This document shows positions 15,030 through 21,513 of a DNA stretch of 39,185 bases, piece after piece. Position numbers and translations under genes: made by a program. Source of the stretch: a virus. Under the pieces are notes generated by a model, which saw only the letters and a list, made by a program, of their open reading frames with translations, was not told the DNA's origin and made no database searches. The stretch's first letter is position 1. Every line of letters starts with the position of its first letter. The DNA is taken from the UHGV virus genome UHGV-1491546. One strand, 5' to 3'.

Positions 15030-15214
15030 ACGCCACAATTCAAACGATACCAGAGCTTCTTATCCAGACACGAGGCAATCAGACCGAAGTGGCGAGGATG
15101 CTTTCCTGCGCAAGAGGAACAGTGCTCAAGTACAACCGAGACAGCAAAGGCGAGCGTCACGTAATAGTTAACGGCGTCCTGATGGTCAAACAGGGCAAGA
15201 GGGGTAGACCATGA
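15026..15214 (+). CDS. ninH: NinH
   Basis: 62 aa; GNQTEVARMLSCARGTVLKY...IVNGVLMV resembles recalled lambda NinH. Confidence 0.75.
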   Translation: MNATIQTIPELLIQTRGNQTEVARMLSCARGTVLKYNRDSKGERHVIVNGVLMVKQGKRGRP

Positions 15215-15834
15215 GACTGGAAAGTGTAGCTAAATTTCATTCGCCAAAAAGCCCGATGATGAGCGACTCACCACGGGCTACGGCTTCTGACTCTCTTTCC
15301 GGTACTGATGTGATGGCTGCTATGGGGATGGCGCAATCACAAGCCGGATTCGGAATGGCTGCATTCTGTGGTAAGCACGAACTCAGCCAGAACGACAAAC
15401 AAAAGGCTATCAACTATCTGATGCAATTTGCACACAAGGTATCGGGGAAATACCGTGGTGTGGCAAAGCTCGAAGGAAATACTAAGGCAAAGGTACTGCA
15501 AGTGCTCGCAACATTCGCTTATGCGGATTATTGCCGTAGTGCCGCGACGCCGGGCGCAAGATGCAGAGATTGCCACGGTACAGGCCGTGCGGTTGATATA
15601 GCAAAAACAGAGCAGTGGGGGAGAGTTGTTGAGAAAGAATGCGGAAGATGCAAAGGCGTCGGTTATTCAAGAATGCCAGCAAGCGCTGCATATCGCGCTG
15701 TGACGATGCTAGTACCAAACCTTACCCAACCCACCTGGTCACGCACTGTTAAGCCGCTGTATGACGCTCTGGTGGTGCAATGCCACAAAGAAGAGTCAAT
15801 CGCAGACAACATTTTGAACGCGGTCACACGTTAG
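15211..15834 (+). CDS. Q: Q-type late antiterminator (P22 gene 23-like)
   Basis: 207 aa, last nin-operon gene directly upstream of a pR-prime-like promoter; Cys pairs CRDCHGTGR...CGRCKG as in Q zinc finger. Confidence 0.8.
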   Translation: MRLESVAKFHSPKSPMMSDSPRATASDSLSGTDVMAAMGMAQSQAGFGMAAFCGKHELSQNDKQKAINYLMQFAHKVSGKYRGVAKLEGNTKAKVLQVLATFAYADYCRSAATPGARCRDCHGTGRAVDIAKTEQWGRVVEKECGRCKGVGYSRMPASAAYRAVTMLVPNLTQPTWSRTVKPLYDALVVQCHKEESIADNILNAVTR

Positions 15835-15876: not shown

Positions 15877-15905
15877 TTGACTTTTTGAATAAAGTTGGGT
15901 AAATT
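15877..15905 (+). promoter_or_regulatory. late promoter pR-prime
   Basis: -35 TTGACT (15877-15882), 17-bp spacer, -10 TAAATT (15900-15905); same hexamers as recalled for lambda pR-prime; 43 bp after Q stop. Confidence 0.65.
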
Positions 15906-16202: not shown

Positions 16203-16559
16203 ATGGCTAGACCGGCCAGTCGAAAAGCAGTATCGTCACTGCCTGCCATAGCGAACATAGACGAGCAACTAGACGAGGTTGTTATGGAAAAAATCTCTGA
16301 AAGAGAACTGCATTTTCTCAATCGAATTCTTCAATTTAAGCAGGAGAGAATTGCTGATTCTGACGTACAGGATGATGAGATTCTCATGGTTGACTCATTG
16401 GTCCGTCATGGATATCTTGCTGTTGGCTTTTTCGACCGTGATAATAACGGCGGATATCATAGCTTAATGCAATACTACTCTCTTACCGAACTTGGCGTTG
16501 CAGCTCATAAAGATGAATGGAAATGGAGAGGGAATCCAAATTCAAATAAAGGTCGCTAA
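16203..16559 (+). CDS. hypothetical moron protein between Q and holin
   Basis: Track ORF 118 aa; better-supported start at ATG 16284 (GAGG SD, 92 aa); stop codon sits in the loop of its own terminator. Confidence 0.55.
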   Translation: MARPASRKAVSSLPAIANIDEQLDEVVMEKISERELHFLNRILQFKQERIADSDVQDDEILMVDSLVRHGYLAVGFFDRDNNGGYHSLMQYYSLTELGVAAHKDEWKWRGNPNSNKGR

Positions 16560-16862: not shown

Positions 16863-17186
16863 ATGAAGATGCCAGAAAAACATGACCTGTTAGCCGCCAT
16901 TCTCGCGGCAAAGGAACAAGGCATCGGGGCAATCCTTGCGTTTGCAATGGCGTACCTTCGCGGCAGATATAATGGCGGTGCGTTTACAAAAACAGTAATC
17001 GACGCAACGATGTGCGCCATTATCGCCTGGTTCATTCGTGACCTTCTCGACTTCGCCGGACTAAGTAGCAATCTCGCTTATATAACGAGCGTGTTCATCG
17101 GCTACATCGGTACTGACTCGATTGGTTCGCTTATCAAACGCTTCGCTGCTAAAAAAGCCGGAGTAGAAGATGGTGGAAATCAATAA
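16863..17186 (+). CDS. S: holin, lambda S family
   Basis: 107 aa; [41 protein letters not shown]... essentially the recalled lambda S sequence, including the dual-start Met1-Lys2-Met3. Confidence 0.9.
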
Positions 17187-17646
17187 TCAACGTAAGGCGT
17201 TCCTCGATATGCTGGCGTGGTCAGAGGGAACAGATAACGGACGACAGAAAACCAGAAATCATGGTTATGACGTCATTGTAGGAGGAGAGCTATTCACTGA
17301 TTACTCCGATCACCCTCGCAAACTTGTCACGCTAAACCCCAAACTCAAATCAACAGCCGCCGGACGTTATCAGCTTCTTTCACGCTGGTGGGATGCCTAC
17401 CGTAAGCAGCTTGCTCTGAAAGACTTCTCCCCCAAAAGCCAGGATGCTGTGGCACTGCAACAGATTAAAGAGCGTGGCGCTTTACCGATGATTGATCGCG
17501 GTGATATTCGTCAGGCTATCGACCGTTGCAGCAATATCTGGGCTTCACTGCCGGGCGCTGGTTATGGTCAGTTCGAGCATAAGGCTGACAACCTGATTGC
17601 AAAATTCAAAGAAGCTGGCGGAACGGTCAGAGAGATTGAGGTATGA
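17170..17646 (+). CDS. R: endolysin, lambda R-type lytic transglycosylase
   Basis: 158 aa; [39 protein letters not shown]... matches recalled lambda R. Confidence 0.9.
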
Positions 17647-18080
17647 GCAGAGTAACCGCGATTATCTCCGCTCTGGTTATCTGCATCATCGTCTGCCTGT
17701 CATGGGCTGTTAATCATTACCGTGATAACGCCATGACCTACAAAGAGCAGCGCGATAAAGCCACATCCATCATCGCTGATATGCAGAAGCGTCAACGTGA
17801 TGTAGCAGAACTCGACGCCAGATACACAAAGGAGCTTGCTGATGCTAACGCGACTATCGAAAGTCTCCGTGCTGATGTTTCTGCTGGGCGTAAGCGCCTG
17901 CAAGTCGCCGCCACCTGTGCAAAGTCAACGACCGGAGCCAGCAGCATGGGCGATGGAGAAAGCCCAAGACTTACAGCAGATGCTGAACTCAATTATTACC
18001 GTCTCCGAAGTGGAATCGACAAGATAACCGCGCAGGTTAACTACCTGCAGGAATACATCAGGACGCAATGCCTGAAATGA
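17643..18080 (+). CDS. Rz: Rz i-spanin
   Basis: 145 aa with N-terminal TM helix and coiled-coil periplasmic domain; overlaps R stop; contains embedded Rz1. Confidence 0.85.
17836..18027 (+). CDS. Rz1: Rz1 o-spanin lipoprotein (embedded in Rz, +1 frame)
   Basis: Signal peptide with lipobox LGVSAC followed by Pro-rich segment ([17 protein letters not shown]); wholly inside Rz in a different frame. Confidence 0.7.
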
Positions 18081-18115
18081 TCGGGCGATGAAAACCAAAA
18101 AAACAGGAGCAATAC

Positions 18116-18391
18116 ATGACTAAGCTTTATCACCGCATCTCAACTTTTCTCTCTGGGTGCTGGGCGTTTATCACGTCTATTTCGTTCGCCATCTTTAGTT
18201 TCGGTAGCACAGCATGCTCGCTTAGTCGGGGTATGTGGTGTGCTATTTCAGCACTAGCGCCGAAATTTTTACCTGAAAAGGCTGTTTGGCGAATTGTAGA
18301 GCGAATGTGTAGTGAGAGCGTTCGCGAGAAGATTAACGTATTTGGACGTCATCCTCGAAATACAGGCGCATTGTGCAGTTCGTTACTGTAG
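18116..18391 (+). CDS. hypothetical Cys-rich hydrophobic protein
   Basis: 91-aa ORF; ATG 18116 preceded by strong AGGAG SD. Confidence 0.45.
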   Translation: MTKLYHRISTFLSGCWAFITSISFAIFSFGSTACSLSRGMWCAISALAPKFLPEKAVWRIVERMCSESVREKINVFGRHPRNTGALCSSLL

Positions 18392-18616
18392 TCATTACAA
18401 AGCCCATCAATGGGTGAGCTTGATAATGAAACCGGAATTTATTCTGGGCCACCAGTTACGGCAGTACAGCGAAACAACCCAAGCCAGTAAGTGGGGAAAT
18501 AACACTGGCAGCCACTGAAAGATGAACCTACTGCCTTATGGCAAAAAAGATTCTTTGTGGTGGCGGACTGATGGAAAGACATCCTAATCAAGCAACCACT
18601 CCACAGGGTCATAATT

Positions 18617-18997
18617 ATGAACGACCAGCAAATCGAAAAAGAAATCGTTGAGAAAGGCAAAACGGCACCGCGAATCACCCCGCAGCACATCGAAGACGTG
18701 ATTAAAAGCGAGCATTACTTTACTGCTTATGATGGACGTAATGGTGCCATTTCCAGCAACGAATATTGTGGCAGAGAAAAACCAGAAGAAGGCGATCGTG
18801 ATTTATCACCATTGAAGTTGCTCACTTTCTGCGTACTGGTGCTGAAGAATGGCTTCACCGTCACCGGAGAGAGTGCCTGTGCAAGCCCGGAAAACTTTGA
18901 TGCAGAAATTGGTCGGAAGATTGCCAGACAGAATGCTGTAAACAAAATCTGGATGCTCGAAGGTTACTTGCTGAAGCAGAAGCTAAGCGAACAGTAG
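18617..18997 (+). CDS. hypothetical protein upstream of terminase
   Basis: 126-aa ORF; weak SD; no recognisable family. Confidence 0.5.
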   Translation: MNDQQIEKEIVEKGKTAPRITPQHIEDVIKSEHYFTAYDGRNGAISSNEYCGREKPEEGDRDLSPLKLLTFCVLVLKNGFTVTGESACASPENFDAEIGRKIARQNAVNKIWMLEGYLLKQKLSEQ

Positions 18998-19100
18998 TTA
19001 TTACAAAAGCCATTCCCTACAGAGTGGCTTTGATAATTGCTTATACCCTACACGGGATAACTTAACTGATATCCCTTTTAACGGATAAACGGAGCCAACA

Positions 19101-19343
19101 ATGGCAGAGATTATTCCCATGACTGAAGAACAGAAATTCCAGTTAGAGATTTACAAGCTGGTCATGAACCAGAACGCAGCCGCAGAGGAAGCATTTCAAT
19201 TCATCGGCACTGACGAGCTGAAGCTTGAGCTATTTAAAATTCACTTCCAGTCAGGCGGCGCTAATTCAGATATCACGACCCGCACTATCGAAGCGGTACG
19301 TAAATCGAAGGAAGCGTTAGACCTGTTCACCACCGGAGCATGA
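19101..19343 (+). CDS. hypothetical protein
   Basis: 80-aa ORF; ATG preceded by GGAG. Confidence 0.5.
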   Translation: MAEIIPMTEEQKFQLEIYKLVMNQNAAAEEAFQFIGTDELKLELFKIHFQSGGANSDITTRTIEAVRKSKEALDLFTTGA

Positions 19344-19344
19344 T

Positions 19345-19524
19345 GTGAGTCGCGTAATAAATTTGGGTAAGGAGAAGAAATTCCCAATTACTCAAGAGCT
19401 ATACGAGCGGATGGAAAGCGTCATCCATGATTACGATGGTGAAATCAGTTTATGCGAGGCGATTGGCACACTCGAATTGCTGAAGCAGTCACTGATTGAA
19501 GGCGCGAAAGAGTCCTCAACCTGA
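19345..19524 (+). CDS. small hypothetical protein (59 aa)
   Basis: GTG start 2 nt after previous stop; open to TGA at 19522-19524; below track cutoff. Confidence 0.3.
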   Translation: MSRVINLGKEKKFPITQELYERMESVIHDYDGEISLCEAIGTLELLKQSLIEGAKESST

Positions 19525-19541
19525 AATGACAATTAAGTGAG

Positions 19542-20036
19542 ATGAATATGGCAGCACCAAAGGGCAACCGATTTTGGGAGGCCCGCAGTAGTCATGGGCG
19601 AAATCCTAAATTCGAATCGCCTGAGGCGCTGTGGGCTGCTTGTTGTGAATACTTCGAGTGGGCTGATGATAACCCGCTATGGGAGGGTAAGGTATTTTCA
19701 TATCAGGGAGAAATAATTAAGGCTAATGTCCCTAAGATGCGAGCCATGACTATTTCAGGATTGTGTACCTTCCTTGATATCACCAGGCAAACATGGGGAA
19801 CCTTCCGGTCAATGGAAGGTTTTTCTGACGTCACATCACGAGCGGAAGACATCATCTACGACCAGAAATTCTCTGGCGCAGCCGCTGACCTTCTCAACGC
19901 TAACATCATCGCCCGTGATTTGGGCCTCAAAGAGCAGTCGCAAGTTGAAGACGTGACACCTGATAAGGGAGATCGCGATAAGCGACGCTCTCGTATCAAG
20001 GAGCTATTCAACCGTGGAACTGGACGCGATTCTTGA
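19542..20036 (+). CDS. terminase small subunit
   Basis: 164 aa immediately upstream of and overlapping terL; N-terminus [22 protein letters not shown] typical of TerS. Confidence 0.75.
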
Positions 20037-21513
20037 TAACCTGAGCGACGAAGAGCAAATCGAATTGCTCGAGCTACTCGAAGAAGAAGAGTACTACCGG
20101 AACACACACCTGCTATATGAATTTACGCCATACAGCAAACAGCGTGAGTTCATCGACGCCGGACATGACTATCCAGAGCGATGTTTTATGGCTGGTAACC
20201 AGCTTGGTAAGTCATTTACTGGTGCTGCTGAAGTCGCGTTTCACCTTACCGGGCGTTATCCGGGCACAAAAGGCTATCCGGCTGATGGTAAATATGGTGG
20301 GGAGTGGAAAGGTAAGCGTTTCTATGAGCCTGTTGTCTTCTGGATTGGCGGCGAGACAAACGAGACTGTAACCAAAACGACTCAACGCATCCTGTGTGGT
20401 CGTATCGAAGAGAATGATGAGCCAGGCTACGGTTCCATACCTAAAGAAGACATCATTAGCTGGAAGAAGTCTCCTTTCTTTCCGAACCTTGTTGATCATC
20501 TTCTGGTTAAGCATCACACGGCTGATGGCGTTGAAGATGGCATTTCAATCTGCTACTTCAAACCATACTCGCAAGGCCGCGCTCGCTGGCAGGGTGACAC
20601 AATCCACGGCGTGTGGTTTGACGAAGAGCCACCATACAGCATTTATGGCGAAGGTCTTACCCGTACCAACAAATACGGGCAATTCTCAATTCTGACGTTT
20701 ACCCCGCTGATGGGGATGTCTGACGTTGTTACCAAGTTCCTGAAGAATCCCAGCAAGTCGCAGAAAGTGGTCAACATGACCATCTATGACGCCGAGCACT
20801 ACACAGACGAGCAGAAAGAGCAAATCATCGCATCCTATCCTGAGCATGAGAGAGAGGCGCGTGCTCGCGGTATTCCTACGATGGGTAGCGGGCGAATCTT
20901 CCAGATACCGGAAGAGACGATTAAGTGTCAGCCGTTCGAGTGTCCTGATCACTTCTACGTAATTGGCGGGATGGATTTCGGATGGGATCACCCGCAGGCG
21001 CAGGTTCAGCTTTGGTGGGATAAGGACGCAGACACAATCTACGTTTCACGCGTGTGGAAGGCGAAAGAAAAAACAGCGGTTCAGGCATGGGGAGCTGTTA
21101 AATCATGGGCGCATAAAGTGCCAACCGCATGGCCTCATGACGGAAACCAGCATGAGAAGGGCGGCGGTGAGCAGCTCAAAGGGCAGTATGCAGACGCTGG
21201 ATTTATGATGTTGCAGGAGCATGCGACATGGCATGATGGCGGTAACGCTGTTGAGCCTGGCATCACTGAATTGCGAGACATGATGCTCGACGGTCGCTTC
21301 AAAGTATTCAACACCTGTGAGCCATTCTTTGAGGAGTTCCGCCTCTATCACCGTGATGAAAACGGGAAAATCGTCAAGCTTAACGACGACGTGCTATCCG
21401 CCGTTCGCTATGCATACATGATGCGCCGCTTCGCAAAAATGATGCGCGACATCAAAAAACCAAAAGAGAAAAAGATACCAGCCCCAATCAGGCCCATCGC
21501 ACGGAGAACTTAA
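20014..21513 (+). CDS. terminase large subunit (P22 gp2-like)
   Basis: 499 aa, same length as recalled P22 gp2; GTG start overlapping terS; followed directly by portal. Confidence 0.9.

Follow-up and report, generated by a model that had tools for sequence, protein, structure and literature searches.

A late-operon hot spot with three accessory-gene slots between the lysis and terminase genes of P22-like and other lambdoid phages, with an Acb4-family gene in one slot

What are the four small genes that lie between the lysis cassette and the terminase in the phage genome UHGV-1491546, and why do they lie there? In the window, by which we mean the whole 39,185-nucleotide stretch of viral DNA that was analysed, the interval extends from Rz (ending at 18080) to terS (starting at 19542), and the open reading frames of 91, 126, 80 and 59 aa (ORF1–ORF4) named in the original prediction are present in it, together with the strong Shine–Dalgarno sequence noted for the first of them (Table 1). 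Homology searches assigned ORF1 to phrog_34701 (E 4e-54; equivalent to HK140 gp68), ORF2 to PF13876 (E 3.4e-35, 120.8 bits with a gathering score of 27, model positions 1–82 of 82), ORF3 to PF10834, or DUF2560 (E 1.1e-43, model positions 1–72 of 72), and ORF4 to phrog_3546 (E 1.3e-42). The description of all four genes as uncharacterised therefore holds for ORF1, which is an orphan, but not for ORF2, which is a member of the Acb4 family with an identical published sequence, nor in full for ORF3 as a DUF2560 protein and ORF4 as P22 orf59c. In NCBIfam and PADLOC the only match for ORF1–ORF4 was a chance-level one of ORF4 to JetB (E 0.008, 13 bits), neither tRNA nor tmRNA was found, and Rfam gave no match with E up to 1 on either strand of 17600–20100. 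The Q antiterminator gene, the PR'-like promoter, the holin, the endolysin, Rz, the ORF1–ORF4 interval, terS and terL all lie on the plus strand, and the location of ORF1–ORF4 inside a Q-dependent late operon is supported by this gene arrangement.

Table 1. Positions of the interval's features and of its late-operon surroundings in the window.
Feature	Position	Strand	Remarks
Q antiterminator	15211-15834	+	PF03589
lambda PR'-like promoter	15877-15905	+	
Rz i-spanin, left anchor of the interval	17643-18080	+	PF03245, E 9.5e-37
Rz1 o-spanin, embedded in Rz	17836-18027	+	PF06085, E 2.4e-20
AGGAG Shine–Dalgarno of ORF1	18105-18109	+	6 nt before ATG
ORF1	18116-18391	+	ATG, 91 aa (ORF list)
hairpin H-a	18393-18428	+	begins 1 nt past ORF1 stop; R1 52.4 bits, E 4e-11
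constant non-coding core (TTACGGCAGTAC...GGAAAGACATC)	18456-18583	.	separates slot A from slot B
ORF2	18617-18997	+	ATG, 126 aa (ORF list)
hairpin H-c	18999-19038	+	begins 1 nt past ORF2 stop; R1 49.3 bits, E 2.6e-10
ORF3	19101-19343	+	ATG, 80 aa (ORF list)
ORF4	19345-19524	+	GTG, 59 aa (ORF list)
terS, P22 gp3 type, right anchor of the interval	19542-20036	+	PF16677, E 8.6e-31
terL	20014-21513	+	Terminase_6N and 6C

A synteny comparison of about 125 related loci revealed three insertion slots divided by constant DNA, in the order Rz, slot A, hairpin and 128-bp core, slot B, hairpin with leader and orf80, slot C and terS. Slot A contains ORF1, Tad2, Rha or KilA-N, slot B contains Acb4 or pid, and slot C contains orf59c, other genes or nothing; each of ORF1, ORF2 and ORF4 is missing from, or replaced in, close relatives. 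The variability expected of this interval among P22-like phages is thus found in slots A, B and C, whereas ORF3 is a constant backbone gene, present in most loci whose sequence extends far enough downstream of the core. The homologues of ORF2–ORF4 in Sf6 (66/67/68), P22 (orf80/orf59c) and HK620 (hkbM/hkbN) are 96–100% identical and keep their order. Where the window phage carries ORF1, slot A of Sf6 contains gene 65 (50 aa) and that of P22 contains rha, and slot B of P22 contains pid on the opposite strand. The insertion point of pid, between the core with its hairpin and orf80, is the position of ORF2 here, and this site has been reported to be empty or to carry another insert in related phages (Cenens et al. 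2013, PMC3573128; Wolput et al. 2022, PMC8835761). In Huey and IME10, slot A is occupied not by ORF1 but by a Tad2-like gene (PF11195, E 1.7e-24) immediately ahead of the same Acb4 gene, a pairing that agrees with the finding that sponge genes such as Tad2 and Acb4 are often linked or fused (Tal et al., bioRxiv 10.1101/2025.07.12.664507). On this interval, the paper describing the genome of phage L was silent, and a transcriptome study of BTP1 and further Salmonella prophages added only that pid is highly expressed in BTP1. In P22-like and other lambdoid phages, the interval is a hot spot for accessory genes of the late operon, and the lysis-to-terminase junction can be described as an organised three-slot site.

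We consider it likely that ORF1, the Acb4-family ORF2 and orf59c are the accessory cargo of this three-slot hot spot and are read from PR'. Slot A would carry ORF1, whose small membrane-type product is linked by position to the lysis cassette; slot B would carry ORF2, which is expected from homology to form an oligomer that captures CBASS cyclic-dinucleotide signals and would thereby keep the host effector from being triggered during virion production; and slot C would carry orf59c (Sf6 gp68). ORF1–ORF4 would be expressed by read-through of the Q-modified transcript that starts at PR', and the hairpins past the stops of ORF1 and ORF2 would work as RNA elements. Since the validated anti-defence families Tad2 and Acb4 stand beside orphans in these slots, ORF1, orf80 and orf59c form a short list of candidates for counter-defence or lysis modulation.

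ORF2, the homologue of Sf6 gp66, belongs to the PF13876 family ('Phage_gp49_66'), which has been defined as the Acb4 family, and a sequence identical to it (A0A0H2Z1H7) was already included in Table S3 of that study, whose homologue list has 1,331 entries (Chang et al., bioRxiv 10.1101/2024.12.30.630793). Whereas the single ORF2 sequence matches SPO1 Acb4 (PDB entry 9E4W) with E 0.007, a profile built from 13 family members, none of the SPO1 type, reaches chain residues 13–87 of the same entry with E 5.7e-14, and this was the only PDB match of the profile. The two proteins share the Pfam family, small size, phage origin and a core with the ENF(D/N)xEIGR motif, kept in ORF2 as ENFDxEIGR, and a stacking Phe, although ORF2 is longer (126 aa versus 96 aa) and differs by an N-terminal extension (IEKEIxxKGxTAPRxTP), an insertion of 27 residues that differs among alleles, a gene position in the late operon past the lysis genes, and changes in most of the ligand-contact residues. 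The contacts compared were K36, F48, E49, V56, Y57, F62, N63, I66, T70 and K81 of SPO1 Acb4. F48, F62 and I66 are identical in ORF2 (F80, F94 and I98), so that only three of about ten are kept, whereas E49 is replaced by T81, V56 by C88, Y57 by A89, T70 by I102 and K81 by M113; N63, a backbone contact, is replaced by D95, and K36 aligns with L68, next to K67. Because the pocket is only partly conserved, the ligand specificity of ORF2 may differ from that of SPO1 Acb4, a homotetrameric pinwheel with its pockets at the protomer interfaces. All eight Acb4 homologues assayed bound 3'3'-cGAMP, and those from phages of Gram-negative hosts also bound 3'3'-cAA (Chang et al., bioRxiv 10.1101/2024.12.30.630793). 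ORF2 is accordingly a member of an already published family with an earlier-listed sequence; it is predicted to be a cyclic-dinucleotide sponge directed against CBASS, and we infer from homology that it would bind such a ligand and inhibit CBASS. The gene is under purifying selection, with a pN/pS of 0.02 over 11 alleles compared with the window sequence. A gene of Sf6 and its relatives that has so far been 'hypothetical' thereby gains a name and a testable mechanism, the sequestration of cyclic-dinucleotide immune signals, and CBASS evasion by a temperate podovirus from its late operon becomes testable in phages of E. coli, Shigella and Salmonella.

As a separate observation, the activity of SPO1 Acb4 is seen early in infection, and the late-operon placement of ORF2 counts against its reading as a sponge.

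The product of ORF1, in slot A, is an orphan, a small protein of apparent membrane type whose gene position is tied to the lysis cassette. Its leader, ACAGGAG, is conserved and travels with the gene, also in prophage homologues. As had been noted from the window sequence, the product is Cys-rich (five Cys in 91 residues) and hydrophobic, the hydrophobicity residing in its N-terminal half (Kyte–Doolittle 19-residue maximum of 1.69 at residues 11–29). The C-terminal 39 residues are highly conserved (WRIVERMCSESVREKINVFGRHPRNTGALCSxLL), and for the C-terminal half a pS of 0.58–1.0, a pN of 0.02–0.10 and a pN/pS of about 0.03–0.1 were obtained against the prophage homologues. Fifty homologues, each of about 90 aa, were collected, and this length is kept even at 22% identity. 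When 1.84 billion representatives were searched with a profile, only 15 clusters were found, all of about 90 aa, and none linked ORF1 to a known family; Pfam, NCBIfam and PADLOC also gave no match. The AlphaFold2 model from 22 sequences (pLDDT 62.5, pTM 0.25) was too poor for a fold search. Of 62 family members, 47 have a lipobox-like motif (LSGC, residues 12–15 in ORF1); the lipoprotein reading was rejected because the Cys of this motif is missing from most of the more distant members, and the signal peptide would comprise just 14 residues.

These properties could also suit a fifth component of the lysis cassette, which would tune the timing of the holin or spanin in the manner of P2 LysA or an antiholin, instead of a host-directed accessory protein. 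ORF1 always starts about 35 nt past a spanin stop, of either the i- or the o-spanin, and does so beside five holin families (Phage_holin_3_1, 2_1/2_3, 8 + 3_7 and 3_3) and three endolysin types, with terminase types that differ as well; the small protein combines a hydrophobic helix at its N terminus with a charged C-terminal domain, its distant relatives have two clear hydrophobic segments, and in one related locus (L132) a LysA gene (PF28015) follows the ORF1 homologue. On the other hand, ORF1 occurs in a minority of phages with the same lysis genes (three phage records, against 164 with the adjacent core), slot A is filled elsewhere by Tad2, Rha or KilA-N, the first hydrophobic segment of the window allele is marginal and its second is not membrane-like, and ORF1 shows no homology with holin or antiholin families. 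A role in lysis is thus conceivable for ORF1, but we think it unlikely.

The hairpins that follow ORF1 and ORF2 belong to one family. H-a consists of a 5-bp outer stem (CATTA/TAATG), a 2 × 2 internal loop (CA/GA) and a 9-bp inner stem, and H-c has the same architecture with a 10-bp inner stem; the segment around H-c (18990–19105) has a fold z-score of -5.65. The family consensus is YATTR-CA-variable stem-GA-YAATG, and its copies are located 0–7 nt past the stop codons of many different genes. In the family alignment 98.4% of cells are paired, as against merely 36–50% in slid controls, compensatory double changes occur in nine of 15 pairs, and none of 500 shuffles matched the pairing. The presence of G.U pairs in 59 of 375 cells, together with the strong preference of the covariance model R1 for the plus strand (10.3 bits on the minus strand of H-a against the plus-strand score in Table 1), suggests that the hairpins act at the RNA level. 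An intrinsic terminator does not fit H-a or H-c because they have no U-tract, and a terminator scan called neither, although a canonical terminator stands at the homologous position in L132. The hairpins were also rejected as promoters, since GATAAT as a -10 box has no -35 box at the proper spacing. T7 RNase III sites and REP-type 3' stabilisers are intercistronic RNA hairpins. The present family resembles them in its imperfect hairpins of about 17 bp with an internal loop, just past stops on a polycistronic transcript, and in its strand specificity with G.U pairs; it has no sequence similarity to any Rfam family, and cleavage or stabilisation is putative. Most likely, the hairpins are 3' stabiliser or processing elements and not terminators.

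The boundaries of the 128-bp core are sharp, with at least five left flanks and at least four right flanks among the sequences listed. Over the 116 distinct core sequences the mean identity to the window is 97.5%, compared with a synonymous divergence of 9–16% in the flanking genes; the constraint is visible only against this divergence, and by raw identity the core is not unusually conserved (Rz, 96.4%; orf80, 95.7%). Several identities for the core were rejected. Against a small protein gene, the ATG of a frame beginning MAKKILCGGG is AAG in seven of the 116 sequences, an extra A falls in an A-run within both plus-strand mini-ORFs in five sequences, and a minus-strand frame of 19 codons is disturbed by indels in a few of the sequences (+2 nt in P22, for example) and has an unconserved stop. 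As a structured RNA the core gave fold z-scores of only -1.4 and -1.8, with too few variable sites for covariation, and P22 'orf25' is not a gene of the core since its start lies within hairpin H-b, downstream of the core.

It might be proposed that the hairpins and the core, far from being passive spacers, make up the machinery of a dedicated cassette system, and that ORF1, orf80 and orf59c are further counter-defence or host-takeover proteins. Each insertion slot would then have its 3' edge defined by a hairpin. The hairpins would serve either as RNA signals that set the dose of each cargo gene through processing or stability, or as recombination signals resembling integron attC, by which lambdoid phages would swap Tad2, Acb4, pid, ORF1 and other anti-defence cassettes at fixed points. 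We regard such a system as a rather distant prospect. The hairpin family and conserved core could nevertheless explain how cargo expression or exchange is controlled, and this is cheap to test.

The original prediction proposed that the interval can host morons expressed with the late operon. In the stricter sense, ORF1–ORF4 would be classic morons, autonomous units that each bring a promoter and a terminator and serve the lysogen through expression from the prophage; the presence/absence polymorphism among close relatives and the hairpins after ORF1 and ORF2 would be in keeping with this, and a proven moron occupies slot B of P22 in the form of pid, an opposite-strand gene with a weak promoter of its own, a Rho-independent terminator and a long 5' UTR (PMC3573128; PMC8835761). 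ORF2, however, lies on the late strand and has neither a promoter nor a terminator of its own. No sigma-70-like promoter was found by a consensus scan in the gaps upstream of ORF1–ORF4; the sole plus-strand match falls inside ORF2, and the total count does not exceed that expected from shuffles. Moreover, ORF1–ORF4 share the strand of the late operon and follow one another at short distances or with coupled starts, the two hairpins have no U-tract, and Acb4-type sponges act during lytic infection. Late expression from Q and the PR'-like promoter is the likely reading, and the genes are better described as accessory late genes than as promoter-plus-terminator morons because no promoter-like site of their own is present. 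The classic moron reading is quite improbable.

ORF3 (P22 orf80, Sf6 gp67, HK620 hkbM) and ORF4 (P22 orf59c, Sf6 gp68, HK620 hkbN) directly precede terS, and accessory DNA-packaging factors working with terS would explain this fixed site. ORF3 is constant in the interval, ORF4 is tightly spaced between ORF3 and terS, ending 17 nt before the latter, and purifying selection acts on both (pN/pS of 0.06 over 71 alleles for ORF3 and 0.21 over 18 alleles for ORF4, each against the window sequence). The GTG start of ORF4 lies 1 nt past the ORF3 stop, so that ORF4 is probably translationally coupled. However, ORF4 is absent or replaced in IME10 (L001), L041 and L069 although terS is 99–100% identical, which argues against a packaging role, and ORF3 adjoins at least four unrelated types of terS (P22 gp3 type, Sf6-like, Terminase_2-like and P27-like) and is truncated and fused, beside an HNH gene, in HK140. 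Neither protein resembles any packaging protein, as judged from sequence families and, for ORF3, a structure search; the packaging accessory functions with known homologues that would have spoken against the original prediction were not found, and such a role is very improbable. PF10834 is carried by all but the weakest of 93 ORF3 homologues, and nothing on the function of DUF2560 was found in the literature. ORF3 is acidic, and its usable AlphaFold2 model (pLDDT 77.5) has four helices; Foldseek gave no match at E<=0.001 in the PDB, and in BFVD a best E of 1.1e-3, with all matches being uncharacterised phage proteins. Sequestin-like sponges were rejected for both (hhalign probability against Sequestin A–C of 0.03% for ORF3 and 0.27% for ORF4; no match to PF21825). 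Neither sequence nor the structure models of ORF1 and ORF3 gave a functional lead for ORF1, ORF3 or ORF4.

It is scarcely credible that some of these frames, above all ORF1 and ORF4 with its GTG start, are open merely by chance in a non-coding spacer, a reading prompted by the absence of RefSeq annotation under ORF1 in the 12 best E. coli genome matches and over the whole interval in IME10, and by the lack of a Pfam family for ORF1 and ORF4, and refuted by synonymous changes that far exceed non-synonymous ones, frames intact in all alleles, the conserved length and Shine–Dalgarno sequence of ORF1 and the PHROG families of ORF1 and ORF4. In homologues pooled from related loci, no allele of ORF2, ORF3 or ORF4 has an internal stop, and Rz as a control gave a pN/pS of 0.15 against the window sequence. 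ORF1–ORF4 are all real genes under purifying selection, given pN/pS values of 0.02–0.21 and the absence of broken alleles. At the right edge of the interval, the true start of terS is possibly 19548 (MAAPKGN, as in P22 gp3) instead of 19542.

The interval between Rz and terS in this P22-like (Lederbergvirus) genome is an ordinary accessory hot spot, the interest of which lies in its clear division into three slots, which house two anti-defence families already validated, and further in a conserved gene that had been overlooked (ORF1) and in a family of hairpins that show covariation. A search for exact copies of a 23-mer taken from the conserved DNA 5' of ORF2 retrieved 120 further viral contigs, and known proteins were mapped onto them. 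Between Rz as the left anchor and terS as the right anchor, slot A is empty or holds Sf6 gp65, ORF1, a protein with a Tad2 domain (PF11195, E = 1.7e-24; seen in Huey and IME10), Rha, KilA-N, T5orf172 or small orphans; slot B is empty or holds Acb4, pid (in P22, on the opposite strand), DUF551, or Acb4 preceded by a 62-aa orphan; and slot C is empty or holds orf59c or several other ORFs. The constant DNA between slots A and B consists of a hairpin and a 128-bp core, and that between slots B and C of a hairpin, a leader and orf80. The cargo combination of the window recurs at one other locus only in the set (L125), and related phages are reported to have either nothing or a different insert at the pid site (Cenens et al., PMC3573128). 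The variability expected of this interval among P22-like phages is thus borne out by synteny, with a consistent plan of slots that carry alternative or absent cargo across related contigs. In the RefSeq record of IME10 (NC_019501, 17680-19305) the Rz-terS interval is wholly unannotated despite containing genes for a Tad2-domain protein, an Acb4 homologue and orf80; both sponge homologues of Huey carry the label 'anti-CRISPR protein'. The short C-terminal motif DGYxSxSPxEVFExxY of a 95-aa slot-C protein at another locus (L119, +431 to +719 from the core) is shared by the N-terminal part, outside the Tad2 domain, of the Tad2 fusion protein in Huey (L003, 1203-1703). Pairwise alignment gave 11 identities in 19 residues (E = 1e-5), and neither part has a Pfam family.

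The closest records for positions 17600-20100 are IME10, HZ41, Sf6 and E212, with an identity of 96-98%, and the region is mosaic, since no single record reaches 80% coverage. The holin, endolysin candidate, Rz/Rz1, interval, terS and terL follow one another in this order on the + strand. Promoter-like sites in the interval show no excess over the shuffled expectation; the gaps upstream of ORF1-ORF4 contain no promoter-like site and the intergenic gaps no terminator-like site. Because the four genes have no such sites of their own and share this strand context, they would most simply belong to the late operon, in agreement with the late expression originally proposed. The 118-aa ORF upstream of the holin lies where lambdoid phages often hold cargo just 3' of PR'. 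The terS gene has two in-frame ATGs, at 19542 and 19548, the second of which matches the P22 gp3 start (MAAPKGN...).

Features of the late region and of the Rz-terS interval
Feature	Position	Strand	Description
Q-type antiterminator	15211-15834	+	PF03589
PR'-like promoter site	15877-15905		TTGACT-17-TAAATT, resembles lambda PR'
118-aa ORF	16203-16559	+	between PR'-like promoter and holin; no Pfam family
lambda-S-type holin		+	downstream of PR'-like site
Endolysin candidate ORF	17170-17646	+	homologous to annotated lambda-R-type endolysins; no Pfam match
Rz (of Rz/Rz1)	17643-18080	+	left anchor
ORF1	18116-18391	+	91 aa
Hairpin H-a	18393-18428	+	36 nt, directly 3' of ORF1 stop
Core	18456-18583		128 bp, non-coding, between variable slots
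ORF2	18617-18997	+	126 aa
ORF2 insertion	18725-18805	+	residues 37-63
Hairpin H-c	18999-19038	+	40 nt, directly 3' of ORF2 stop
Second small hairpin	19054-19075	+	GGGATA-10 nt-TATCCC, then TTTT
ORF3	19101-19343	+	80 aa
ORF4	19345-19524	+	59 aa, GTG start
terS	19542-20036	+	right anchor; terL then follows on +

The ORF list agrees exactly with the four frames of the original prediction, and all four are real genes. The pN/pS values against homologues at related loci are 0.02 (ORF2), 0.06 (ORF3) and 0.21 (ORF4), compared with 0.15 for the control Rz, with no internal stop in any allele; in the C-terminal half of ORF1, pN is 0.02-0.10 versus a pS of 0.58-1.0. Their description as uncharacterised holds for ORF1, for which no family was found in Pfam, NCBIfam or PADLOC, but not for ORF2, which is of the Acb4 family, nor for ORF3 and ORF4, the long-annotated orf80 and orf59c. 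These identities are the main correction: the observation is confirmed and its interpretation was right in part.

ORF2 matches the whole of the Pfam model PF13876 ('Phage_gp49_66'; E = 3.4e-35) and is a homologue of Sf6 gene 66. PF13876 is the family of Acb4 (anti-CBASS 4), which was first found in Bacillus phage SPO1, and comprises 1,331 members, mainly from phages and prophages; all eight further purified homologues bound 3'3'-cGAMP, binding of 3'3'-cAA was seen in addition where the source phage infects a Gram-negative host, and none bound c-di-GMP; Table S3 of the same work includes Sf6 gp66 (Q716B1) and a protein from E. coli APEC O1 identical to ORF2 (A0A0H2Z1H7) (Chang et al., bioRxiv 10.1101/2024.12.30.630793). 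As a single sequence, ORF2 matched the SPO1 Acb4 chain 9E4W with an E value of 0.007, and this chain was the sole match of a profile of ORF2 and 12 other family members, built without any SPO1-type sequence (E = 5.7e-14, residues 13-87). In the family alignment the ENF(D/N)xEIGR motif is retained in ORF2. Three of the published contact residues are kept (F48, F62 and I66, corresponding to F80, F94 and I98 in ORF2), and E49, Y57, T70 and K81 are changed to T81, A89, I102 and M113, respectively. Membership of the Acb4 family is secure because of the Pfam, Table S3, 9E4W and motif evidence; that ORF2 acts by a sponge mechanism, its ligand spectrum aside, is strongly suggested, and it is predicted to be a known kind of anti-defence gene, the exact sequence of which is already catalogued. 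Unlike SPO1 Acb4, ORF2 has an additional N-terminal extension and a 27-residue insertion, which follows the N-terminal helices and precedes the first strand of the Acb4 core. The sequence of this insertion varies among E. coli alleles and is wholly different between E. coli and Shigella alleles, the remainder being nearly identical. In DNA, no other gene of the interval is as divergent as ORF2 (mean identity 88% versus 96% for the flanks).

ORF3 is a DUF2560 protein (PF10834, E = 1.1e-43), from a family of narrow, enterobacterial range, with counterparts in P22 (orf80), Sf6 (gp67) and HK620 (hkbM); those of ORF4 are P22 orf59c, Sf6 gp68 and HK620 hkbN (phrog_3546). The AlphaFold2 model of ORF3 contains four helices (pLDDT 77.5), and its structural neighbours are only uncharacterised phage proteins. 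Neither protein resembles the Sequestin sponges, which often accompany Acb4 and Tad2 (Tal et al., bioRxiv 10.1101/2025.07.12.664507). The alternative weighed in the original prediction, a conserved packaging function, appears unlikely for ORF3 and ORF4, because ORF4 is lost or swapped in IME10 and at two other loci (L041 and L069) although terS is 99-100% identical, and because ORF3 precedes several unrelated terS types.

The features ascribed earlier to ORF1 are present, namely an AGGAG Shine-Dalgarno sequence, 6 nt upstream of the start, and a Cys-rich hydrophobic product (five Cys, with a hydrophobic N-terminal half). ORF1 matches phrog_34701 end to end, and is shared by only N7 and HK140 (gp68) among phage records. 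It is clearly under purifying selection, yet it seems to be a small gene that annotation misses systematically: at least 80% of its segment is present in 112 genomes, and all of the 12 best E. coli matches (H61-H72) lack a RefSeq annotation there. It belongs to a small family, with 50 clusters at 90% identity and 15 among 1.84 billion representatives, and all members are about 90 aa in length, with a hydrophobic, variable N-terminal part and the near-invariant C-terminal motif W(R/K)(I/V)(I/V)ER..CS...RE.(I/L)N.FG..PR.TGALCSPLL. In every retrieved context ORF1 is preceded by a conserved ACAGGAG leader and starts about 35 nt past the spanin gene, and this placement is independent of holin, endolysin and terminase type. 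Structure prediction gave a poor model. A role in lysis timing can be proposed only tentatively; the favoured reading is that ORF1 may be a membrane-associated accessory protein co-made with the lysis proteins. An apparent lipobox (LSGC) was rejected, as it is not kept in distant members.

The edges of the core are sharp against several different flanks on both sides. Once the 23 positions that the search itself held constant are taken into account, the core differs from the window by about 3%, whereas synonymous sites of Rz, ORF2, ORF3 and ORF4 at the same loci differ by 9-16%, which suggests that the core is under constraint. The core folds no better than shuffles and has no match in Rfam. 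A coding core was rejected, with starts mutated and frames shifted in some alleles. Its AAAAAAG run has an extra A in five of 116 distinct sequences.

The hairpins after ORF1 and ORF2 share an outer 5-bp stem (YATTR/YAATG), a 2x2 internal loop (CA/GA), an inner stem of 9-10 bp with variable sequence and a loop of 3-6 nt. Among 25 distinct copies, 98.4% of the cells are paired and compensatory double changes occur in nine of 15 pairs; none of 500 shuffles matched the observed covariation, a test to be read with the caveat that the copies were gathered by outer-arm pattern and an energy filter, and sliding the partners reduced the pairing to 36-50%. G.U accounts for about 16% of paired cells, in keeping with a fold formed by the sense RNA. 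In the 39-kb window the covariance model found only H-a and H-c, which score 52 and 49 bits on the + strand versus 10 bits on the reverse strand. Related loci carry one to three copies, clustered in the Rz-terS interval wherever positions were compared with the core, and in 60 distinct contexts 23 hairpins begin exactly 1 nt past the stop codon of a frame that is 40 codons or longer. More than 120 other viral contigs contain a variant motif, which lies 0-7 nt behind the genes of Rha, LysC or Rz spanins, ORF1, Tad2 fusions and many orphans. The family occurs in the lysis-to-terminase region of many lambdoid phages (L001-L006, L127-L137 and L139-L258). It matches no Rfam family, nor anything in the published accounts found. 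The hairpins have no U-tract; one locus (L132) has a canonical terminator at the same position. The favoured reading is that the hairpins are putative RNA 3' stabiliser or processing elements. P22 'orf25' (NC_002371; L138, 1530-1607) starts within H-b, the hairpin downstream of the core in P22, and extends into P22-specific sequence with a G-run end; it is probably not a gene. The second small hairpin of the window lies in the conserved leader 5' of orf80, within a strongly folding segment (18990-19105, z = -5.65).
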